This document shows positions 2,654 to 51,300 of a stretch of 64,000 bases of DNA, one piece after another; position 1 is the stretch's first letter; each line of letters opens with the position of its first letter. The stretch comes from Azolla caroliniana (Eukaryota > Plantae > Polypodiophyta): NCBI GenBank assembly GCA_043228905.1, contig JBHGNT010000012.1, positions 7,502,001 through 7,566,000 of the forward strand. The letters are read 5' to 3'. The notes beneath the pieces are model-generated. The model was not told the DNA's origin, searched no databases, and worked only from the letters and a program-made list of their open reading frames with translations. The translations under genes and the position numbers were made by a program.

Positions 2654-2965
2654 CGTAAACGAAAGTGTTTGCGGAAGCGTAAAACAGAGAGCAACACAGA
2701 GAGAGACAGAGACAGAGACAGAGAGACAGAGAGACAGAGAGACAGAGAGACAGAGAGACAGAGACAGAGACAGAGAGAGACAGAGAGAGCGAGAGAGACA
2801 GAGAGAGCAGAACGTAGTTTCAAAATTATATCAAGACTCTGTATATACACTGTGCTAAGTAGCACTATTTATACAAGTCCTCTTGGGACTAATAGAAGTA
2901 CCATGTACTTCAATGCTCACACAAGCATCTGACACTTACTACGAGACTATAGCTACCTAGTAGTC
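2654..2965 (-). repeat. partial copia 5' LTR containing a (GACAGA/GAGA)n microsatellite (~2686-2810)
   Basis: Adjacent to the PBS; TATAAATAG on the - strand; similar to the LTR at 15287-15618 (GGACTTGTATAAATAGTG...GTTCTGCTCTCTCTGTCTCTC). Confidence 0.75.
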
Positions 2966-4122
2966 TATCCTAACGGGTAGGACCCATTATACTCACGTGT
3001 CAGCCAATACAGGCCGGTCCATCTAAACCGTAGTTTACCCGGCATCTTGCCCATCCAGGTCTGAAATACTAACACCGGCTTGCCGATTGCAAACATTTTT
3101 TCATTTCCTTTCCTGTGCCGGTCGACAAATGCTTTCCGTCGTCGTTGTTCCAATTCTAAGTGCAGGATGCTTGCCAGTCGTTGTTCCTCGAGTTCACACA
3201 ACGTTGTTAACCGTATTGCCTCCGACTCCTTCTCGTTCAGCCGTTCCCATAGCTGGATCCGTAAGCTGGGTACTTGGAATTCCATCGGCATTACTGCCTC
3301 TAGTCCGAACGCTAACCGGAACGGTGTTGTTCGGATGCTCGTTTTATATGTCGTTCGGTATGCCCAAAGCGCACTATGTAGCTTGGTATCCCAATCCATT
3401 TGGTTTTCGTTGACGATCTTCCAGAGGATATTCTGGAGCATTTTGTTCGTCGATTCAGCTAACCCGTTTGCTTGCAGATAGTATGGTGTGCTCCGTTTAT
3501 GGACAACGGCATAGAATGTCGTCAGGCTTTCAACTACTTGGCTGAGAAAGTGCCCCCCTTGGTCGCTTATTAATTCGATTGGGCATCCGTAACGGCACCA
3601 AATGTACTCGTATAGAAATTTTGTCGTTGACGTAGCGGTGTTGTCTCTTAAGGCTTTGGCCTCCACCCATTTCGTGCAGTAATCCGTCGCGACGATGACG
3701 TACCGATTACCTGTTCTCATTGCCGGTGGTTTGAACGTTCCAACAAAGTCCAACCCCCACTTCTGGAATGGTTTGAGTAGTAGTACAGGCTGGTGTGGCA
3801 TCTGAGCCTGCTCCGTTGGTTGGCCCATTCGCTGGCATAGGTCACATTGTTTTGTGTACCGTACCGCATCTCTTAATGTCGTTGGCCACCATAGGCCACT
3901 TTGCCATATTTTCCTGGCTGTCGCATCTCCGGCATAGTGACCTCTGGCAACTCCGCAGTGGGCTTCCCTCAGTATCAGGTCCTTTTCATCGTTGCGCACA
4001 GCCCGTCTCCATATGTTGTCTGCGCCCTTGTGGTAAAGTGTGTCTCGCAGCACCGCCAGGCGTTTCCTTTCGTCCCGGTTCATCTCTTCTGGAGGCAGTC
4101 CTGTGCTCAGAAACTGGTGCAT
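2965..4122 (-). pseudogene. gypsy integrase of element A
   Basis: HHCC zinc finger (H...GHY...CDLCQ), DDE core, GPY/F-like RWTGLYW; truncated at the junction with the copia LTR. Confidence 0.88.
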
Positions 4123-4259
4123 ATTTGTGAGCCACTTGTCTTCCTATGCCACAGTTTCATCTGCTGTCGTTTCCGTAGTGACTCGAAACAGCTCTGCATC
4201 CGGAAACTCGTCCGCTACTCCGTCACCCGTCTCTCCGGACTCTAATCGGCTTAAGTAAT

Positions 4260-4612
4260 TGTCAAGATTCGAACTCTTGACACGACCATGTTATAATCTA
4301 CTATTATGAGTTAACCAAGATATCTAGTACTAGTTATGTATGTAATTGGTCCTTATTATTTTGCTAGCATCATGTGCATAGTTGCTCCCTTGTAGTATTT
4401 ACACTTGGCACATGCATGCATACCTACATGCTCTATTGTAGATTCACATGCGTGCAACAAGTATGCATGCCATGTAGTATAAATAGAGGAGTTCACCTTG
4501 AAGGAATTCAAGGTGAACAACACCAGTTATGGAGTCTTTCCTTTAGTACTATCTTCTTTCTTGTCCATTTGGTTATCTTCTTCGTTGTCTCTTGAGTTTA
4601 TGATCCGTGACA
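4260..4612 (+). repeat. 5' LTR of element B (TATA box 4478-4485, predicted TSS ~4510)
   Basis: Direct repeat of 9200-9552; TATAAATA followed 32 nt later by a CA initiator. Confidence 0.95.
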
Positions 4613-4662
4613 GTTTGTTCACCTTCCCATCCTCATAGCTCTCCCTCTCATAAGCCATAGCT

Positions 4663-5679
4663 ATGTCCGACTCAACTAGTGAGTTAGGCCAAATAATGGT
4701 AGCCTTACGACAACTACAGCTTGAAAATGAAGCTCTTCGAAATTCTTTACAAGAACTTCAAGTCGGTACCTCCCTATCCTCACAACCCCTGAACCCTAGT
4801 CTCCCACAACAACCTAGCCTAGAGCCCGATCTTCTACCAACATCTAGCCTAGCTTCGTCACAGTTTCTTGAGCCTAAGGTTAGCCTCCCAGAAAAATTTG
4901 ATGGAACGAGGTCGCGTTTCCGAGGGTTCATCAACCAAGTTCGACTTATCATTCGGCTACAACCTCAACGTTATGGAGATGGTCTTCGACAAGTCGGCCT
5001 TGTGGGCACCCTTCTCTCCGGTCCGGCCCAAGCTTGGTTTGCACCATTGGTAGAAACCTCATCACCTTTATTGGAGGACTTTCCCGCCTTCCTCGCCGAG
5101 TTAGAGGCCACATTTGGAGAGACGGACCGACGACGTACAGCTCTTAACAAGATTTATGCACTCGAACAAGGTTCACGTGCAGCTTCAGTCTATGCTTCCG
5201 AATTTCGACAACTAGCATGCGACGTCAATTGGGATGATCAAGCTTTAGCTGATCACTTTCGGCGCGGTCTTCGAAGCAATGTCAAGAATCTTCTCTTAAA
5301 CTTTCCGGAGCCCACCTCGTTATCCCAAGCGATTTCACAAGCAGTCCATTGTGACAATCGTCTTTTCGAATTTCGCCAAGAAGAGCGCCAGACTTGGGTT
5401 CCACCTCATTCACTTCCACGCCACGCCCCGATCATACAACCCCAAGCATCCTCACACTCGCCTACTTCGGCAGATGCTCCTGTCCCCATGGAAATTGATC
5501 AAGCCCGATTTCGGCCATTGACTGATGCTGAACGACAATTTCGGCGGGCTAATGGCTTGTGCATGTATTGTGGCGCCTCCGGTCATGTCGTTCGCCATTG
5601 TCCTAGGAGTACTCGCCCACAATTCCATAGAGCTACCGGCCCCCAACATCCGGAAAACGACATCGTTCGGTTGCAGTAG
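4663..5679 (+). CDS. gag (PEG10/RTL1-like capsid + CCHC knuckle) of element B
   Basis: PEKFDGTRSRFRGF, LLSGPAQAW, LEQGSRAASVYASEF, PVPMEID, CMYCGASGHVVRHC. Confidence 0.95.
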   Translation: MSDSTSELGQIMVALRQLQLENEALRNSLQELQVGTSLSSQPLNPSLPQQPSLEPDLLPTSSLASSQFLEPKVSLPEKFDGTRSRFRGFINQVRLIIRLQPQRYGDGLRQVGLVGTLLSGPAQAWFAPLVETSSPLLEDFPAFLAELEATFGETDRRRTALNKIYALEQGSRAASVYASEFRQLACDVNWDDQALADHFRRGLRSNVKNLLLNFPEPTSLSQAISQAVHCDNRLFEFRQEERQTWVPPHSLPRHAPIIQPQASSHSPTSADAPVPMEIDQARFRPLTDAERQFRRANGLCMYCGASGHVVRHCPRSTRPQFHRATGPQHPENDIVRLQ

Positions 5680-8600
5680 GAGCCATGCAACTGGACATCT
5701 CCCGTCGCCCACATTCTCTTGGTTCCATTGCCGGACCATCAGGCAATTTCACATTGGAGGTATGGCTTTCGTTTAACTCTAGTTCCATTCAGTCTGTTGC
5801 TTTACTTGATTCTGGGGCATCTTCTTGCTTCATCGACGTCGCGTTTGCCCAAGCACATGGCGTACCTGTCGTTGGCCTCTCAAAACCCATTCCAGTTGAA
5901 GCCATCGACGGGTGCGTCCTCTCGTCAGGTGCAATTACTCAAGCTACAATCCCATTAGGGCTTCGGGTGGGCTCACACCAAGAGGAGCTCACCTTTTACC
6001 TCATCGCATCTCCTCGACATCCGATCGTCTTAGGACTAACGTGGTTGGAGGCGCACAATCCAATAGTGGATTGGTGCAACCGCTCAATCACATTTAGCAA
6101 GCCAAGATGCTCGTGCAAAAGTATGAAGGTAAATTCAGTTTCCTATCCTTCGGAGACGGTCGACTCCGAATTGACTACCCCATCATCCGTCCAGGATGGG
6201 TTTGTTTGTGGCGCCATTTCTAACACACTCCATGTTATTCCCGAAAAATACCAACACTTCTCCGACGTATTTGAAAAATGTAATGCTGATCGGTTGCCTG
6301 AACACCGGCTCTACGACTGTCCGATTGATCTTCAAGAAGGTGCGTGTCCACCCTTTGGTCCTCTATATGCGTTGTCTGCACCAGAGTTGAAGGCCCTTCG
6401 TGTGTATCTTGATGAGAACCTCGAGAAAGGCTTTATTCAACCTTCTAAGTCACCAGCCGGGGCCCCCATTTTATTTGTGAAGAAGAAGGACGGCTCTCTA
6501 CGCTTATGCGTCGACTACCGAGGTCTCAACAAACTCACTGTGCGCAACCGCTATCCGCTACCTCTGATCCCCGAACTCCTTGATCGGCTCCGAGTTGCGC
6601 GTGTCTTCTCCAAAGTTGATCTGCGTGGCGCGTACAATCTAGTACGCATCAAGCCGGGGGATGAATGGAAAACCGCATTTCGAACACGGTATGGGCATTT
6701 CGAATACAAGGTAATGCCTTTTGGTCTTACTAACGCTCCCGCAGTTTTTCAACATATGATGAACGATATTTTCCGGGAATATCTTGATCTTTTTGTTGTC
6801 ATTTACCTCGATGATATTCTCATTTTCTCGCCAAACATGGAGGAGCACACTCGCCAAGTCCGATTAGTTCTGGCCAAACTTCGCGAGCATGGCCTTTATG
6901 CCAAAGGCGAGAAATGCGAGTTCGACCGTACCTCGATTGAATTTCTGGGCTACATCATCTCACCCACTGGCATCACCATGGATATGAAGAAGGTCTCTGT
7001 CATTCAGGCGTGGGCGACTCCAAGGCGACTTAAAGATGTGCAATCCTTCCTCGGCTTCGCGAATTTTTACCGTCGCTTCATCAAGGGGTTTTCCACCCTA
7101 GCACAACCTCTTATCGCTCTCACCCATAAAGGCACTCCATTTTTATGGACCTTGGAGGCACAAAATGCGTTCGACTCACTCAAACATGCATTCATCACTG
7201 CCCCGGTGCTGCTACATGCCGACCCCACAAAACCCTTCCAAGTCGAAACCGATGCCTCTGACTTTGCCATTGGCGCCATCTTATCCCAAGCAGACGACAA
7301 TAACCTAATGCACCCAGTGGCTTACTATTCCCGAAAATTTACGGCATCCGAAATCAATTATCCCATTTACGACAAGGAGCTTGCTGCTATCATTGCTGCC
7401 TTTGAAGAATGGCGACCCTACTTGGCCGGCGCACAACATCGTGTCCAGGTAGTGACTGATCATAAAAATTTAGTTTATTTTTCCACCACTCGTACTTTGA
7501 ATCGAAGGCAGGCCCGTTGGTCTACATTTCTCGCCGACTACGATTTTGAGATCGTATTTCGACCTGGTGGCCAACATGGGAAGGCTGATGCCCTTTCTCG
7601 CCGAGCTGACCTTGCACTCCGCCCTGGGGATGCTGCTTATGCTCAACAATCTAGACGTTTGTTGAAACCCGACCAATTGCATCTGTTTGCCACTTGTATG
7701 TTGCAGGATGATTCTTTACTCCAACAAATCACTGATGCATCCAAGACCGATGCGTTCGCCAACGAGATTCGAGATAGTCTGCAAAACCCCTCCAAGGCGA
7801 CCAAAAGGAAGGATCTTGACACCTTCACCATACAAGAGGGTTTGTTGTTCCGAGATCATCTCTTATACGTCCCAGAGGGCCCATGTCGCACCCGGGTGTT
7901 GCGGGAATGCCACGATGACCCACTTGCAGGTCATTTCGGGGTTGCGAAAACCCTCGAGCTAATCTCTCGGGGGTATTGGTGGCCACAACCATGGAAGCTG
8001 GTCAAAGAATACATAAAGAGTTGTGAGGTTTGTGCTCGCTCCAAAGCCATTCATCATCGGCCATACGGCTTACTACAACCGCTTCCATGTCCTCGTTGTC
8101 CTTGGGCCTCTATCTCTATGGACCTGATAACTGATCTACCCTTGGTCAATAGCTATGACTCGGTGTTGGTCGTTGTCGATCGGTTTACGAAGATGGCTCA
8201 CTTCACTCCATGCTCCAAAACCATTTCCGGAGAAGGAATGGTGCATCTCCTACTCAACAATGTAGTACGCTTGCATGGACTCCCCGATGATGTCATCTCG
8301 GATCGCGGACCCCAGTTTGTCTCTCACTTCTGGCAGCGCCTGCTACAAACTTTAGGCATCTCTGTCAAGTTGTCCTCTGCTTATCACCCCCAAACTGACG
8401 GGCAAACGGAGCGTGTCAACCAAATCCTTGAGCAGTATCTTCGGTGCTCGGTTAGTTACCAACAAGATGATTGGGTCAACTTACTTTCGCTCGCAGAATT
8501 CGCCTACAATAATTCTCTCCATGCATCGACTGGTGTCACTCCCTTCTTTGCCAACTACGGTTTACATCCTCGCTTCAACATTTCCCTTCCTACCACTTCC

Positions 8601-9236
8601 GTGAACCCTTCGGCGGAGGATCGTGCCCGCATTTTGGAAGAAGTACATCATGATTTATCCTTGGAGCTTAGTCTTGCTAATGAACGATACAAGAAGCAGG
8701 CTGATCGCCATCGATCTTCCACTCCACACTTTGTCGTTGGAGACATGGTCTGGTTGTTACGTCGACACATCTCTACTACTCGTCCATGTGCGAAACTTGA
8801 TTACAAGAAGTTGGGACCATTCCGTATCATCGAGTGCATCAATCCCGTCGCCTTCCGGCTCGCCCTTCCATCCCACTTCCGGATTCACGATGTTTTTCAT
8901 GTCTCCCTCCTCGAACCCCATTATGCTTCACAACTCCCAGGACGTCAAGCCCCACCACCACCACCTGTGCAATTGACGACAGGGGAGGAATACGAGGTCG
9001 ACCAAATCCTTGACTCGCGTTGGCACCGTCGACACTTGCAATACCTCGTCCTATGGAGGGGTTACCCCATGTCTGAGGCCACATGGGAACCATCGGCAAA
9101 TTTACAAAATGCCCCAGAGGTCGTCCAAGATTTTCATCACCGATATCCCCACAAACCAGCAGCCGATTTGGGAAGGCGGCGGCGTAAGAAGGGGGATAAT
9201 GTCAAGATTCGAACTCTTGACACGACCATGTTATAA
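5652..9236 (+). CDS. pol (PR-RT-RNaseH-INT-chromodomain), in the -1 frame relative to gag
   Basis: ALLDSGAS, YLDD, ETDASD, TDHKNL, INT ISMDLIT..SDRGPQF..QTDGQTER, C-terminal chromodomain EYEVDQILDSR..YLVLWRGY..TWEP. The frame is open from the slippery site at 5652 through the ATG at 5685. Confidence 0.95.
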   Translation, partial: GKRHRSVAVGAMQLDISRRPHSLGSIAGPSGNFTLEVWLSFNSSSIQSVALLDSGASSCFIDVAFAQAHGVPVVGLSKPIPVEAIDGCVLSSGAITQATIPLGLRVGSHQEELTFYLIASPRHPIVLGLTWLEAHNPIVDWCNRSITFSKPRCSCKSMKVNSVSYPSETVDSELTTPSSVQDGFVCGAISNTLHVIPEKYQHFSDVFEKCNADRLPEHRLYDCPIDLQEGACPPFGPLYALSAPELKALRVYLDENLEKGFIQPSKSPAGAPILFVKKKDGSLRLCVDYRGLNKLTVRNRYPLPLIPELLDRLRVARVFSKVDLRGAYNLVRIKPGDEWKTAFRTRYGHFEYKVMPFGLTNAPAVFQHMMNDIFREYLDLFVVIYLDDILIFSPNMEEHTRQVRLVLAKLREHGLYAKGEKCEFDRTSIEFLGYIISPTGITMDMKKVSVIQAWATPRRLKDVQSFLGFANFYRRFIKGFSTLAQPLIALTHKGTPFLWTLEAQNAFDSLKHAFITAPVLLHADPTKPFQVETDASDFAIGAILSQADDNNLMHPVAYYSRKFTASEINYPIYDKELAAIIAAFEEWRPYLAGAQHRVQVVTDHKNLVYFSTTRTLNRRQARWSTFLADYDFEIVFRPGGQHGKADALSRRADLALRPGDAAYAQQSRRLLKPDQLHLFATCMLQDDSLLQQITDASKTDAFANEIRDSLQNPSKATKRKDLDTFTIQEGLLFRDHLLYVPEGPCRTRVLRECHDDPLAGHFGVAKTLELISRGYWWPQPWKLVKEYIKSCEVCARSKAIHHRPYGLLQPLPCPRCPWASISMDLITDLPLVNSYDSVLVVVDRFTKMAHFTPCSKTISGEGMVHLLLNNVVRLHGLPDDVISDRGPQFVSHFWQRLLQTLGISVKLSSAYHPQTDGQTERVNQILEQYLRCSVSYQQDDWVNLLSLAEFAYNNSLHASTGVTPFFANYGLHPRFNISLPTTSVNPSAEDRARILEEVHHDLSLELSLANERYKKQADRHRSSTPHFVVGDMVWLLRRHISTTRPCAKLDYKKLGPFRIIECINPVAFRLALPSHFRIHDVFHVSLLEPHYASQLPGRQAPPPPPVQLTTGEEYEVDQILDSRWHRRHLQYLVLWRGYPMSEATWEPSANLQNAPEVVQDFHHRYPHKPAADLGRRRRKKGDNVKIRTLDTTML

Positions 9237-9552
9237 TCTACTATTATGAGTTAACCAAGATATCTAGTACTAGTTATGTATGTAATTGGTCCTTATTATT
9301 TTGCTAGCATCATGTGCATAGTTGCTCCCTTGTAGTATTTACACTTGGCACATGCATGCATACCTACATGCTCTATTGTAGATTCACATGCGTGCAACAA
9401 GTATGCATGCCATGTAGTATAAATAGAGGAGTTCACCTTGAAGGAATTCAAGGTGAACAACACCAGTTATGGAGTCTTTCCTTTAGTACTATCTTCTTTC
9501 TTGTCCATTTGGTTATCTTCTTCGTTGTCTCTTGAGTTTATGATCCGTGACA
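9200..9552 (+). repeat. 3' LTR of element B
   Basis: Identical to the 5' LTR; preceded by the PPT and followed by the TSD. Confidence 0.95.
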
Positions 9553-9557
9553 GTAAT

Positions 9558-12500
9558 CCGCTACGGCATGTTGTATCCCGAGTCGGTGGAATATTTCGAA
9601 CTCGAATTCCTGTAACAGTAAGGTCCACCGGGCCAACTTACCGGTGAGTGACGCTTTGGACACCAGGTAAAGGAGTGCCGAATGATCTACATGGAAGGAA
9701 AACTTCCTTCCCAATAAATAATGCTGAAACTTTGTCACACTGTAGATCATCCCTAGAGCTTCCCGTTCCGTGGTAGAGTAGTTCCATTCCGCTTGGGATA
9801 GCTTTCGGCTGGCATAGTACACTGGCCGGTACCACTTTGGCTCCGTAAGCTGCATCAGTACGCTTCTGATTGCGATGTCGGAGGCGTCTATGAACACAGG
9901 AAATTCTTTACTCCAATCTGGTGGCTGCACTACTGGTGCTTGCGACAATAGTACCTTGAGGGCCCTATACGCTCTATCCTCGGTGTCAGTCCACTAGAAT
10001 GGTGTCCGATGTACGGCGGCATGCAACGGTGTAGCCAGGTCGGCCAAGTATCGGAGCATCCGGCTGTGCCACCGGATCTGGCCTAAGAACCGGCTTAATG
10101 CCTTTGCCGTTGCCGGCGCCAGTGCTTCTAATATGGCTTTCACTTTGTCCGGGTCGACTGCAATACCTTCCTGGCTCACAATATGTCCTAATAAAGTTCC
10201 ACTGGAAACGCCAAATACACACTTTGCCGGATTCAAGTTTAGCCGGTACGCTCTACACTTTTCTAGACAAAGACGGAGGTGCTGAAAATGGTCCTCCTCC
10301 CCGGCTATAGACGGTGAAATCGTCAAGGAAAACCTGCATAAAAGCCAGGATATATTCACCAAAGATTTCCATGATGATTCGTTGAAATGTTGTCGGTGCC
10401 GTTTTGAGTCCGAACATCATCACCACGGCCACAAACACCCCCCATTCAATGACGAAAGTCATTTTCTCTTGTTCGTCGAGGTGCATCCGGATCTGATTAT
10501 ACCCGCTGAATCCGTCTAGAAAGCTATAGACCTCATGGCCGGCGACCGTAGCCGCATCCGTTACCGTAGCCGCATTGAGTTTCCGATAGTCCACACAAAC
10601 TCGAATTTTTCTGTTCTTCTTCGGTACGACTACGATCGGGCTCAGCCATGTCGCTTTCTTTACCGGACGGATAAAGCCAACTCTTAGCAGTTTGTCGATT
10701 TCCTCCTTGACTTTGGCGGCATAATTGGGATTCATCCGGTACCATCTTTGTGCCACTGGTTTTGCATCCTTGCTCAAGTGAACCTGATGCTGGTATAACT
10801 AAGGGTCGAGTCCTCGCATGTCTTCGTATGACCAGGCAAACACATCGCGAAATTCCGTGAGAAGTGTGATCATCGTCGTTTTGTCTTCGGACTTCATCTC
10901 CTTGGCGATGTGCACCGGTTTTGCTTCATCCGTGGTCCCTAGGTTCACCTCTTCCAGTTGCAACGCTTTTATGCGCTCTGAAACGGCCATTTCCCGTTCC
11001 AACGCTTCCTGCGCTTGCCGTAACTCCCGGATTGCGTCTTTATCCGGTTCTGCTTCAGCCTCTTCCAGCTGCGGTAAGTATGGTGCTACTGCTTCGGCAA
11101 TGTCAATTTCAAAGAGGGGTATGATCTTCGGGTTTTCCTGCAAGTACTGAGCTTCTTCTTCGTCAGCTAACCCTTCTATCATGTTGACGCACTCTGCATA
11201 CAACGGTGTACATTCCTTGCCAGTGCTCGTCCTTGGCTGTGTTGGTACCCGTACCTTGGCTTTTCCTCGTCGGAAGGTAATTATATTTTTCCTCCAATTC
11301 TGTTTGATATGTGTCGTTTTCAACCACGGCCGCCCCAGCAATAGCGGGTATGCGCCTTGTGCCTGTAATTGTAGCACTACTGCCGAGATGTGAAATTTGT
11401 GACCGCCAACGGTGACTTCTAATTTTCGTATTAATCCTGTCGGCCGCACTGAACTTGTATCGGCCATCCGTAACCAGAACGGACACGGCTCCCACTCGTG
11501 GATTCCCAGGGCATCACACGTCCGGAGGCTTATTACATTCACCCCGGAGCCTCCGTCTATAACTGTGTCGGGTAGTTCTTTCCCTTTTACAATGGCAGTG
11601 ATTACCAGACTGTTGGTGTCTACCACCGTTGGTCCCTCCTCCGGATTCGAGAAGAGTACCGGGGCCGGTGATGATTCTCCTGCCGTCATGGCCGTCTTCA
11701 GTCCTTCCATGAATCTTGGCACGAGTTGTAGGAGTCTTCCTAGTGGAAGTGTAATCTGGCATTCTTGCAACGCCTGCCATATCCCATTCTCGGAGTGACT
11801 GCCGCCGGCAAGCCCTACGGTGTTCTCCTTTTGCTGTTGTAAGTCTGTGACATTCTGCTCATTTGCTTTCTTTACGCATTCCGTCGCTTGCTTCTGGATG
11901 GTCTCCTGCGTCTCCCATTCCTTGGCCATGCCCTTCGACCTTGTGGTCACCTGCTGCAGATCTGCCACCTCAGGGACTACCATATTTACTGCCGGTCGTT
12001 TTTCATAGCTCTTCACCGGGCATTCATTACTATAATGGCCTTCCTGTCGGCAGTAGTAGCAGTAGGCTTTCCGGGTATTGCTGGATTCAGCATTGTCTGT
12101 TGTACCCGAGGCCGGTCCTGTGGTAAGCACGGGGTTTTGGGCCGGTTGGCTGCTTGAAGCTCCTTGTTCCGGATCCCGTGGGTAGCCGCCTTTTTTGAAA
12201 TGCCGTTTTTTGTTATAGTTCTTCTTATTGCGGTACTCTTGACGAGGTTGCTCGTTATATTTGCCGTATTCCTCCCGTTGCTGATGATATTGGGGGAGTG
12301 CTCCCGGTCGTAATGTTTGTATCGTCTATTGTAATCCCGGTACCAATCATATCTATCCTGCCGGTCATAGTTATCCCGCCGATCACCGTACCGGACATCA
12401 TTCTCTCGTCGATCGCCATACCGGACATCCTGTGTCGGTCGGTCGCGGTTCATTCGCCGCCAGCGTTCCTCTTCTTCATCCCGGCTGCTGCGTGGCTCTA

Positions 12501-15788: not shown

Positions 15789-16241
15789 TGTTGAGAATCA
15801 ACCTCAACCTAGTGCGTGTGAACACACCCTTTCAGAATCTATGATCACTCAAAGGTCAAGAGTCACACCACTACTCTCTACACATTAACTATGTGTCATA
15901 GAATCATATTCTATGACACATAACTAATGAGTTCCATATTCCCCACGACTATGAGTCTTTACATTCCCCAAGAAAGAGTACTTGTTGTAGTAAGTTAATG
16001 AAGAGAGAGGGTGATCTTATATAAAGCACCCTTCTCCTACTTCATATAGGGTTGGTTATGACTCCTTGTAATGCTACATTTTGTATTTGCTATTCTCCTT
16101 GTTAATATACACCTTCTTGATTTCTTTATTTTTCTTTGACCTATTCATCTTGTCCTTTCACTTTTTCTCATCTCTTTCCTCTCATACACACACATCACAC
16201 ACATCTCTTCCGTTGCACAAGATCATATCTGATTCTTTACA
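15789..16241 (+). mobile_element. copia solo LTR
   Basis: TGTTGAG...TTCTTTACA flanked by 5-bp TSD ATTCC (15784-15788, 16242-16246). Homologous to the interrupted - strand LTR at 24206-28189. Confidence 0.88.
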
Positions 16242-27360: not shown

Positions 27361-28189
27361 GTAGCTACCCCGGAGGTAGGTGACGAGCGATCAACCAAGG
27401 ATCATATTAGAGACGCCCACGAGGTCTCTACATTCATTATAAAGATTGGGTTTTTACTTTTCAAAAAGGGGGGGAGAAAGAGGAGGGTTGGATAAACCCT
27501 AGCACCCTTTTTCAAAAAGGGGGAAGTGTTAGGTAGTGAGACAAGAATGGGTCTAGTTAGTTAGGCGTAGCACCAAGAAGTGAAAGTTGTAACTAACATG
27601 ACTATAAATAGAAACAAAGGATGTCCAATGAGGGACCCTTTTTGGAGCCTATTTGTGTATGTCACAATATTTCTATAATAAATATAAAAACATTCGTTTT
27701 TTTTAAATAAAGGTTCATAAACTCTCCCCTTTTTTATTTGACACTAGTGATAAAGGAAAGTTAATACTAATCATATTTTTATAATCTATTAATGAATGAT
27801 TATTCTTTTTTACTGAATTAAATTTATTTATTGTTTAAATAATTAATTAATTAATTTTTTGCATATTTATTTTGCAAAACGAATGGTTTTATAATATTCT
27901 TAGGGCAATTTCGTATTCTTGATATTTCAGAATATCACGCATGTGCTAATCAATGACCAACACATTACAAAGTAGGAGTGTGCTTTATATAGTCACCCTC
28001 TCTCTTCATTAACTACCGAAGCTCATCAATCATGGGGAGTGTGGAAACTCATTAGTTATGTGTCATAGAATATGATTCTATGACACATAGTTAATGTGTA
28101 GAGAGTAGTGGTGACTTTTGACCTTAGAGTGCTCATAGATTCTCAAGATGTGTTCACAAACTAGTCTAGGTTGAGCTCAATTATCAACA

Positions 28190-48389: not shown

Positions 48390-51300
48390 TGTTGGGTTCT
48401 TGCTTTGAATCCCAAAAAACTTCCTCACTTAAGGGTTATGACAGTATATATAGACAGGGGGAAAAAACCTCCTAAAGAGGGAAAAAATGGCCCCTGTTCT
48501 CCTAAGTGTGTTCACACACATCATTGTCCTAAGTGTGTTCACACATCACTGTCCTAAGTGTGTTCACACACATCACTATCCTAAGTGTGTTCACACAGCA
48601 CTGTCCTAAGTGTGTTCACACATCACTACCGAAATATGTCAACAAAACCCCCTTGGGAGTGATGCGGTGAACAAGGAGCTAGCACTCATGGATAAGCAAG
48701 TGCCAAGCTATGTGGATAGAGACCAATCCACAAATGGAAGTATGCCTAAAGCTTTGCGGAAAGCTTCAAACTTCTCCCTAGGCAGAGCCTTTTTGAAGAG
48801 GTCTGCAATGTTCTCTTGCGTGGGCACTTAAGCCAAACTGATCTCTCCGGCAGAGAACCTTTCCCTAACATAGTGATAATGCACCTCAATGTGCTTAGTG
48901 CGAGCATGGAACACAGGGTTCCTAGCAACTGCCATTGCGCTTTGACTATCAGTGAAGATGGTGGTGGCAGAAGACTGACCAACACCCAAATCAGCTAAAA
49001 GGCGTCTGAGCCACACACACTCAACTGTAGCTGTGAAAGCTGCCCTATACTCAGCCTCACAACTAGAAGTGCCCACAGTAGGCTGCTTCTTGCTCAACCA
49101 AGATATGCATGAGCTACCAAGCATGAAGCAAAAACCACTTGTGGACACACGAGTGTCATAACAACCAGCCCAATCAGAGTCAGAAAAAGCATGCAGGTCT
49201 GGCGGTAGTGTTCCCCCTTGGGATAAAACAAATCAAGTGACCGGGTACCACTCAAGTAGCGAAAGATGCTCTTAACTGCCTGCCAATGCTTAACTCCTGG
49301 GCAATGCATAAACCTGCTCATCTGAGACACAGCAAACTGAATATCAGGTCGGGTTATGCATAAGTAAATCAAACAAACTGAATAAAGATAGTTCCCAAGA
49401 GAATGTGTCTGCATAGGGCCACAAACATCACTATGAACAAGCTGCAATTTCTGTGAAGCTCTAACGGAACCATCGAAAGGATGAACGTTCCATTTTGCCC
49501 AAAATACAGCCTTCACAAACATGCTTTCAACCACGATGAGCTGCAATTGCACAGATGCTACGAACAGTAGTCATACGGCAGGTGGGCGCAAAGGTCTCAT
49601 CAAAATCAATGCCTTTTTCTTGGGCATAACCTTTTGCAACAAGCCTAGCCTTATACCTATCAATTGTTCCATCAGGTTTACACTTTAGCTTATATACTCA
49701 CTTAGTGCCAATAGCCTTCTTGCCAGGAGGCAAGTCACATAAAGACCATGTACCAGTCTTCATAATAGCATCATATTCTCATTCCATAGCAACCATCCAA
49801 TTTTCTGAATTTTGTGCTTCATCAAAAGAAACAGGCTCATTCTCATCGCAAAGACTAGAGGCAGCCATAGCATAACAATCTGATGCAAAAGAAGCACTAT
49901 GATAACCTGAACGAATACAATATGACAAAGGAAAATCCAATTTACTGTCTTGCAAAGTCTGCAACAACCATTTAGGCACAGTCTTTGCCTCCTCTATATC
50001 AGCCCTCTCATTAATAAGTGCATCATGTAAGTCTGCATCAGAAATAGGATGATCTGCATCAGAAATGGAATGATCAGCATCATTATGAGTAGCTTCCAAA
50101 GGCTGAGAAGGTGCCTCAAGTGGGCCAACACTTAACTGTTCACTTGTAAAAAGAGGCAACAAAGTGTCATACACATCTCTAAAGCTAACTGATGTCTCCT
50201 TAGTACATGAAAGAAGTGGCTGAATTGCATCCTCCACAAAAACAACATCACGGCTAACCAAAATGCGTGTAGATTGTGGATGATACAGACAATAACCTTT
50301 ACTTTCAGAACTGTATCCTACAAAAATACATTTCACTGCTTTATCATCCAATTTTTTGCATTGTTGTTTAGGCACTAATGCATATGCCAAACAACCAAAA
50401 ACACGCAGATGAGTAACAGATGGCTTTTGGCCATGCCAAGCTTCATATGGAGTGATAGAGTGCAGTGCTTTAGTGGGACACCTGTTGAGTACATATGCTG
50501 CACACATGACAGCCTCAAGCCAAAAACTATGCGGTAGGGCCTGACTTTTGACCATACACCTCGCCATTTCCATGAGTGACCTGTTCTTTCTTTCAACAAC
50601 TCCATTTTGTTGAGGTGTATACAACATTGTACACTGATGTTTTATCCCATGTTCAACCAGAAATGCATTAAACTCATAAGACATATGCTCCCCCCCCTCG
50701 ATCAGAACGGAGGGTGCCCATTTTACATGCTGACAAATTCTCAGCCAAAGCTAGAAATTGTTTGAAGCACAGAAACACTTCGGACTTTGCCTTCAATGGA
50801 TATACCCATGCATGCCTAGAAAAGTCATCAATGAAAGTCACGAAATAAAGATAGTTCCCAAGAGAATGTGTCTGCATAGGGCCACAGACATCACTATGAA
50901 CAAGCTGCAATTTCTGTGAAGCTCTAACGGAACCATCGAAAGGATGAACGTTCCATTTTGCCCAAAATACAGCCTTCACAAACATGCTTTCGAGGTGCCT
51001 CAAGTTTGGGCAAGGAGGACACCATTTCAGATTTCTGCAAGCAAAGCAAACTTGCAAAATTCAAATGACCAAAGCATGCATGCCAAATCTTTGCATTTGA
51101 AATAGCCTAAGAATCTTGTATTGCACAGGCTGAATCATTTATAGATCGTTCAGAATCTACGAGGTTATACAACCCACGACATAAAATGCCAGAAGCAATA
51201 ATAACATCCCCATTGGACAGATCATGAACTGTACACCTGTCATCAACAAATTTAACAACCAAGCCAACCTTGGCTAATGCTAAAACTGACAACAGATTTT

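Follow-up and report, generated by a model that had tools for sequence, protein, structure and literature searches.

Why would a retrotransposon that appears to prime its own reverse transcription carry, just upstream of its predicted transcription start, a second sequence able to pair with its primer? The question is raised by an LTR element at 4260-9552 of the window (the whole 64,000-nt stretch of Azolla caroliniana contig JBHGNT010000012.1 that was analyzed, positions 7,502,001 to 7,566,000). An initial annotation of this DNA had pointed out that the U3 region holds what looks like a repeat of the element's primer binding site (PBS), placed so as to form a hairpin with the predicted self-primer, and had suggested that the hairpin masks the primer in some transcripts. 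The features needed to follow the argument are these, in window coordinates:

4255..4259 (plus strand): left target-site duplication GTAAT, repeated at 9553-9557
4260..4612 (plus strand): 5' LTR, 353 bp, with TG...CA ends, identical to 9200-9552
4478..4485 (plus strand): TATA box TATAAATA, 32 nt 5' of the predicted self-primer
4491..4502 (plus strand): U3 arm (anti-primer), a copy of 9 nt from the PBS with 3 further nt
4503..4506 (plus strand): loop GGAA, variable in sequence among relatives
4507..4518 (plus strand): 3' arm, the last 3 nt of predicted U3 and the first 9 nt of the predicted self-primer
4510..4520 (plus strand): predicted 11-nt self-primer, complement of the PBS, with predicted start at 4510 from comparative TATA spacing and a C-A initiator
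4526..4533 (plus strand): R segment predicted by folding to pair with 4604-4611, the second duplex of a Tf1-like leader
4604..4611 (plus strand): end of U5, predicted by folding as the partner of 4526-4533
4615..4625 (plus strand): PBS, complement of the element's own 4510-4520, without the TGG of a tRNA site
4663..5679 (plus strand): gag, with Retrotrans_gag, Ty3 capsid-like region and CCHC knuckle
5631..9236 (plus strand): pol, in a frame overlapping gag, with protease, RT, RNase H, integrase, SH3 and chromodomain
9186..9196 (plus strand): polypurine tract, called from sequence
9200..9552 (plus strand): 3' LTR, 353 bp, identical to the 5' LTR
9431..9458 (plus strand): 3' copy of the hairpin, predicted to form in genomic RNA, covering the spare primer copy at 9450-9460
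9553..9557 (plus strand): right target-site duplication GTAAT, partner of 4255-4259

Results

A Tcn1-like chromovirus with a hairpin over its predicted primer

The LTR termini, target-site duplication and polypurine tract of the element at 4260-9552 are those of a Ty3/gypsy chromovirus, as is a Pol domain order of protease-RT-RNase H-integrase with the chromodomain (a PF00385 match at Pol 1121-1171) at the C-terminus. Y, W and Y of the Pol translation sit at what we take to be the aromatic-cage positions of the chromodomain, a Tcn1 trait. Complementarity between the LTR and the next 25 nt reaches 11 nt at most, pairing 4510-4520 with 4615-4625, so that the PBS is an own-LTR complement beginning 2 nt after the LTR and lacking TGG, as in the Tcn1 clade. 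The published definition, in the part of PMC6317226 available, calls for no complementarity to a tRNA 3' end and a match of at least 10 nt to the element's own LTR, 0-5 nt after the LTR. Judged by its own PBS, ORF and chromodomain features, the element is classed as a Tcn1-like chromovirus. A candidate -1 frameshift signal lies in its gag/pol overlap, where a GGAAAAC heptamer at 5652-5658 precedes an 11-bp stem predicted at 5665-5675/5684-5694. The insertion site lies in a broken Ty3/gypsy element on the minus strand (2965-4143 plus 9538-12325), split between its RNase H and integrase regions.

The U3 arm at 4491-4502 and the segment 4507-4518 match without error as reverse complements on either side of GGAA, giving a perfect 12-bp stem just as the initial annotation had it. 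The stem is bounded by an A4490/A4519 mismatch and covers 9 of the 11 bases of the predicted self-primer. Because the two 353-bp LTRs are identical, the copy at 9431-9458 is identical to 4491-4518, which bears out the earlier statement that the 3' LTR holds the same structure. The stem-loop has a calculated energy of -17.1 kcal/mol as RNA and of -11.7 (plus strand) or -11.4 (minus strand) as DNA, and a perfect stem of at least 12 bp with a 3-8 nt loop appeared in 0 of 2000 dinucleotide-shuffled LTR sequences. The exact 28-mer hairpin occurs 576 times in genome G000. Matches to the LTR anchored on both flanks number 302, and among the 100 of these that were listed about 82, counted by eye, have the perfect 12-bp stem. 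Curated Rfam models gave no matches to 4200-4800 at E values up to 1. For three tRNA-primed LTRs from this genome, 30, 144 and 182 of 200 shuffles were as stable as the native sequence, and none has a comparable fold at the hairpin position. The control LTR starting at 48390 in the window has a weak fold (-14.8) beyond all of its shuffles, made of G- and C-runs and large loops, unlike the 12-bp stem.

Predicted start site and self-priming

Among the 34 related elements having both an LTR core and a PBS, the TATA box lies at -31 to -34 from the primer in 33, and C-A occupies -1/+1 in 31; the start at 4510 proposed by the initial annotation agrees with this comparative pattern. Folded from +1, 33 of the 34 give a primer:PBS pairing probability of at least 0.84. 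The arm, at -19 to -8, lies upstream of the predicted start and is therefore likely to be present in RNA at the 3' end only. For Tf1, the available text of PMC7175516 describes pairing of the first 11 bases with the PBS and cleavage by RNase H between bases 11 and 12; for plant Tcn1 chromoviruses, excerpts of PMC6317226 and PMC2864245 describe a non-tRNA PBS and predict Tf1-like self-priming. Two of the three duplexes of the Tf1-type "pretzel" leader are predicted by the fold of this element. In the families of three other loci (L042, L043 and L127), 8 nt of the predicted primer are self-complementary, and two RNAs could pair with each other through their primers.

Distribution of the hairpin among relatives

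A Gag homologue search followed by alignment supplied 78 metagenome loci, and an RT motif search supplied 20 loci of other families in genome G000. LTR cores were recognized from the TATA box together with a conserved motif that follows the primer, never from the hairpin, and were obtained for 42 of the 78 metagenome loci (the other 36 being excluded) and for 12 of the 20 G000 loci, these with a Gag match. Five loci found by a looser primer search, with no TATA support (L041, L048, L099, L104 and L109), were excluded as primer calls. No Gag relative was found in viral contigs; the close Gag relatives include a fungal record.

The Gag tree, built from 54 unnamed rows plus the window and rooted at its midpoint, separates a clade of 36 rows (support 100/99) from a sister group of 19. 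In 36 of 36 clade rows, at Gag identities down to 56%, the 5' part of the primer is covered by a hairpin whose register does not vary. The sister-type elements examined number 18 (16 tree rows plus two with no Gag match); nine mask the primer by a hairpin in another register and nine leave it unmasked, including families L043 and L047, whose LTRs are 99.3% and 99.8% identical. The initial annotation had named absence of the hairpin from related self-priming families as evidence that would count against it; such absence was found in half of the sister-type elements, while the element's own clade has the hairpin throughout. Since 9 of 18 sister elements, young families among them, do without it, the hairpin is not a general requirement of self-priming; it would be an improvement for this clade.

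The second type of hairpin, in the sister clade, has its arm directly before the predicted start, and its loop consists of the first primer bases. It was seen in L113, L121, L098, L045, L031-L033, L036, L037 and L138-L140, and reaches 13 bp in L113.

Covariation of arm, primer and PBS

The clade of 36 rows yields 23 distinct rows for covariation analysis. In these, 94.2% of 276 cells are paired, against 24-47% in slid-structure controls. Two-sided changes occur in 4 of the 12 pairs, and the covariation score of 0.164 compares with 0.067 in shuffles, none of 500 scoring as high, although kinship of rows alone can exceed such shuffles. Column entropy is 0.45 bits in the arm, 1.64 in the spacer between TATA box and arm, and 1.39 in the loop. 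At primer base 5, where T occurs 17 times, C four times and A twice, the arm matches in 23 of 23 rows, and the PBS does wherever it is present. The C rows are spread over three Gag subclades, but L055/L058 and L086 are alike in U3, so the independent three-way changes possibly number only two. Columns 24/31 and 25/30 show two-sided change as well, and because these pairs fall outside the primer they are independent of the PBS; the three stem pairs that lie outside the primer are likewise covarying. The comparison of arm, primer and PBS that the initial annotation had called for thus finds three-way covariation, and its description of the arm as a second PBS-like copy pairing with the self-primer is sustained by the conserved stem.

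A match between primer and PBS would be partly mechanical, the PBS being recopied from the primer if the element behaves like Tf1. The match between arm and primer is not mechanical, unless it comes about by template switching. On the plus (RNA) strand there are 5 G-T cells against 2 A-C cells (a terminal one and another produced by a bulge), an asymmetry that involves few lineages and leans weakly toward RNA as the folding strand. Seven of the 23 rows have a fixed G-A mismatch. The loop varies freely, with 12 different 4-mers in 23 rows; only two rows have a GNRA loop, and an inverted loop is inherited at two loci, so the GNRA form of GGAA, to which the initial annotation had drawn attention, is incidental, and a GNRA tetraloop is rejected both as a conserved feature and as having a role. 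The hairpin itself is real, covarying and found clade-wide in the sequences compared, and it is probably selected.

Template switching at the hairpin

Precise inversion of the 4-nt loop occurs in three LTRs at two loci (L129:265-617 and 4784-5136; L152 near 556-605). The two loci share four further differences, and the inversion is therefore inherited. It is a natural record of template switching at the LTR hairpin. Locus L155 belongs to a family that otherwise carries the fixed G-A mismatch, yet the arm is perfect in its two LTRs. Template switching or conversion thus acts at the repeat, and could transfer a primer change to the arm without selection, yielding part of the covariation.

Could the hairpin then be a functionless by-product, in which the arm arose once, by duplication through a template switch, and later switches from one arm to the other maintain the match? 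The inherited loop inversion and the perfect arm of L155 are what such a process would leave, and active sister families have no hairpin. We nevertheless consider this explanation unlikely. Register and pairing persist to 56% Gag identity while spacer and loop are scrambled; mismatches last in whole subfamilies, which means that correction is slow; G-U pairs are retained rather than corrected; inverted copies number only 3 against 576 exact 28-mers in genome G000; and a second hairpin, placed otherwise, is found on the same target.

Individual copies depart from the consensus. The arm is broken by a mismatch in both LTRs of L132, another copy has a shortened stem, and in L130 a primer base differs in both LTRs with no matching change in PBS or arm; such a pattern would follow from a daughter element taking its primer region from the 3' R of its parent. 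Reverse transcription can itself place the same change in the two LTRs of a copy, and copies with a broken arm, a short stem or a changed primer need not have survived selection. The decayed LTRs of another family at L149-L151 show a further primer variant with a partly matching arm; their PBS is unreadable and they were left uncounted.

Proposed masking of the 3' primer copy

The reading we favor, with about as much confidence as doubt, is that the arm, present in RNA at the 3' end only, would mask the 3' copy of the predicted self-primer. By analogy with Tf1, transcription would start at 4510, bases 1-11 would pair with the PBS, and RNase H would free them as the minus-strand primer. The RNA would end in U3-R and so carry an identical spare 11-mer near its 3' end. 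There the local hairpin would hide 9 of the spare copy's 11 bases and leave base 12 onward, the strand-transfer acceptor, open. A masked copy would be kept off the PBS; otherwise it might displace the true primer, or become a cleavage substrate at the edge of the acceptor. The risk would be greatest after strand transfer, when a strong-stop DNA of about 90 nt would tether the PBS to the 3' R and the U5 template would be degraded, the PBS then being held by 11 bp only.

Predicted folds agree with several of these steps. Opening the 3' primer copy would cost 9-17 kcal/mol in 22 clade members, compared with 4-7 kcal/mol when U3 (the 24 nt before the primer copy, in a 3'-end RNA) is shuffled, and the cost lies above all 30 shuffles in 21 of the 22. 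For the element in the window, the 3' end is predicted to bind the PBS region about 10 kcal/mol more weakly than with shuffled U3, none of 200 shuffles being as weak. With U5 removed, the predicted fold keeps the hairpin and the 3' end does not engage the PBS. Masking would not be absolute: as long as the U5 end is there, predictions still have the 3' copy opening and binding the PBS, at -11.7 kcal/mol. The fold results fit a role after strong-stop synthesis. Stems across the clade end at +9 to +11, and the acceptor from +12 is mostly free. The sister hairpin in its other register points to the primer, not promoter geometry, as the target. Sequestration of the primer copy at the 3' end, as the initial annotation had proposed, gains support from the predicted cost of opening.

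Discussion

Alternatives to the proposed 3' masking

The initial annotation had also proposed that the arm, in RNA that is read through or started upstream, takes the primer from the PBS, leaving only RNA started at 4510 able to prime. When 25 nt of U3 are added to the folded RNA, the predicted primer:PBS pairing of 13 of the 23 clade members drops to at most 0.2, from the high values obtained from +1, and folding during transcription would be expected to favor the local hairpin. Control by choice of start site has a precedent in Tf2, though via a downstream start (as described in the accessible part of PMC5341516). In 10 of the 23, however, pairing is predicted to stay at 0.7 or more, the present element among them in one folding window tried, and its arm probability runs from 0.15 to 0.99 depending on the window folded. 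Moreover, upstream-started RNAs are likely a minority, and the 3' copy would be in every genomic RNA. Restriction of priming to correctly started RNA thus draws weak backing from roughly half of the clade in these predictions and is, overall, improbable as the explanation of the arm, although it may operate alongside 3' masking.

It is very unlikely that the hairpin serves 3' end formation by spacing or presenting U3 signals to a poly(A) site in the 3' LTR, in the manner proposed for HIV-1 TAR and the HTLV-1 R structure. The positional logic is the same, a part of U3 acting at the 3' end only (PMC2645353, in the portion consulted), and a scan of the element's R-U5 for 11 poly(A)-like hexamers gave no match. 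Against it, an AATAAA-like hexamer sits within the R of many relatives, downstream of their primer; a spacer stem has no need of primer sequence; and hairpin geometry differs in the sister clade. A TATA box doubling as poly(A) signal was also considered; it would be unneeded in the many relatives with an AATAAA-like hexamer in R, though the present element may use one.

Work on Tf1 reportedly found its primer to be retained. A fold in DNA might, on the minus strand, hide the internal PBS-like copy from a retained RNA primer and so protect that primer from RNase H, or might matter at the promoter, where it covers the stretch that opens at initiation. Both DNA strands can fold the hairpin, at the energies given above; the loop inversion indicates that a single-strand fold or switch does occur; and retention of the PBS on cDNA is described in the available text of PMC11042837. 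Either version is nonetheless highly improbable, the minus strand being disfavored by the 5 G-T against 2 A-C cells, and the promoter by the two registers relative to the start site and by tRNA-primed LTRs with the same type of TATA box but no hairpin.

Relation to known self-priming systems

Masking of the 3' primer copy would build on features already known from other elements. The pretzel leader of Tf1/sushi elements, including Tf1 and Tf2 of Schizosaccharomyces pombe, likewise pairs an 11-nt 5' segment with an LTR-adjacent PBS (PMC7175516, PMC4600332, bioRxiv 10.1101/2022.12.06.519325); the sections available for these elements also present a predicted second duplex between R and the end of U5, and a chromodomain integrase. 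Every duplex described in those sections is confined to the 5' UTR, downstream of the start, whereas the arm found here is in U3, upstream of the predicted start, and hence its hairpin would form at the RNA 3' end; the third pretzel duplex is absent from the predicted fold of this element. The plant Tcn1 clade shares the non-tRNA PBS, predicted self-priming, two ORFs and the aromatic-cage chromodomain, and the plant Tcn1 studies, in the excerpts at hand, deal with the primer-PBS match only and do not describe a U3 anti-primer arm (PMC6317226, PMC2864245). A parallel for telling apart the ends of a terminally redundant RNA by means of U3 exists in the HIV-1 polyA hairpin and its USE and in the HTLV-1 R structure, as outlined in part of PMC2645353; in those viruses U3 activates a poly(A) signal, whereas here it would silence a primer copy by direct pairing.

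The initial annotation knew of no description of this arrangement, and in the literature searched on self-priming and the 5' UTR pretzel we likewise found no U3 arm directed against a primer. The sources covered, in the portions available, were PMC6317226, PMC2864245, bioRxiv 10.1101/2022.12.06.519325, PMC4600332, PMC11042837, PMC3601003, PMC5341516, PMC7175516, PMC519032 and PMC2645353; the primary Tf1 papers and the Tcn1 supplements lie outside this set. The covarying U3 hairpin is an addition, of specialist interest, to a known self-priming mechanism, not a new system.

If the masking of the 3' copy is real, self-priming LTR elements have an inherent problem in the form of a second primer copy at the RNA 3' end. 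Models of the Tf1 type, as presented in the sections available, treat the 5' leader only and leave open why the 3' 11-mer does not compete, and a covarying U3 arm offers a concrete and testable answer. The arm would amount to a new rule for end discrimination in terminally redundant RNA. A broader proposal is possible, though we hold it with more doubt than belief: that several self-priming LTR lineages separately evolved a U3 anti-primer arm that silences the 3' copy alone, that such arms arose at least twice among these Tcn1-like elements in different registers, and that in these elements they are needed for holding the spare copy away from the PBS during strand transfer. Families with a long hairpin, with a hairpin placed otherwise, or with none are natural comparisons. 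The constant layout of TATA box, arm and primer also helps to locate start sites and self-primers in unannotated LTRs.

Other repeats in the window

Three other pairs of LTR-like direct repeats lie 4-5 kb apart in the window, at 16828-17617/21919-22778, 53762-54447/58190-58962 and 48390-48578/52890-53080, with no Pol match to the element described here. Perfect inverted repeats of 68 nt, 12 kb apart at 15866-15933 and 28046-28113, each contain a 15-bp hairpin and are possibly the ends of a DNA transposon.
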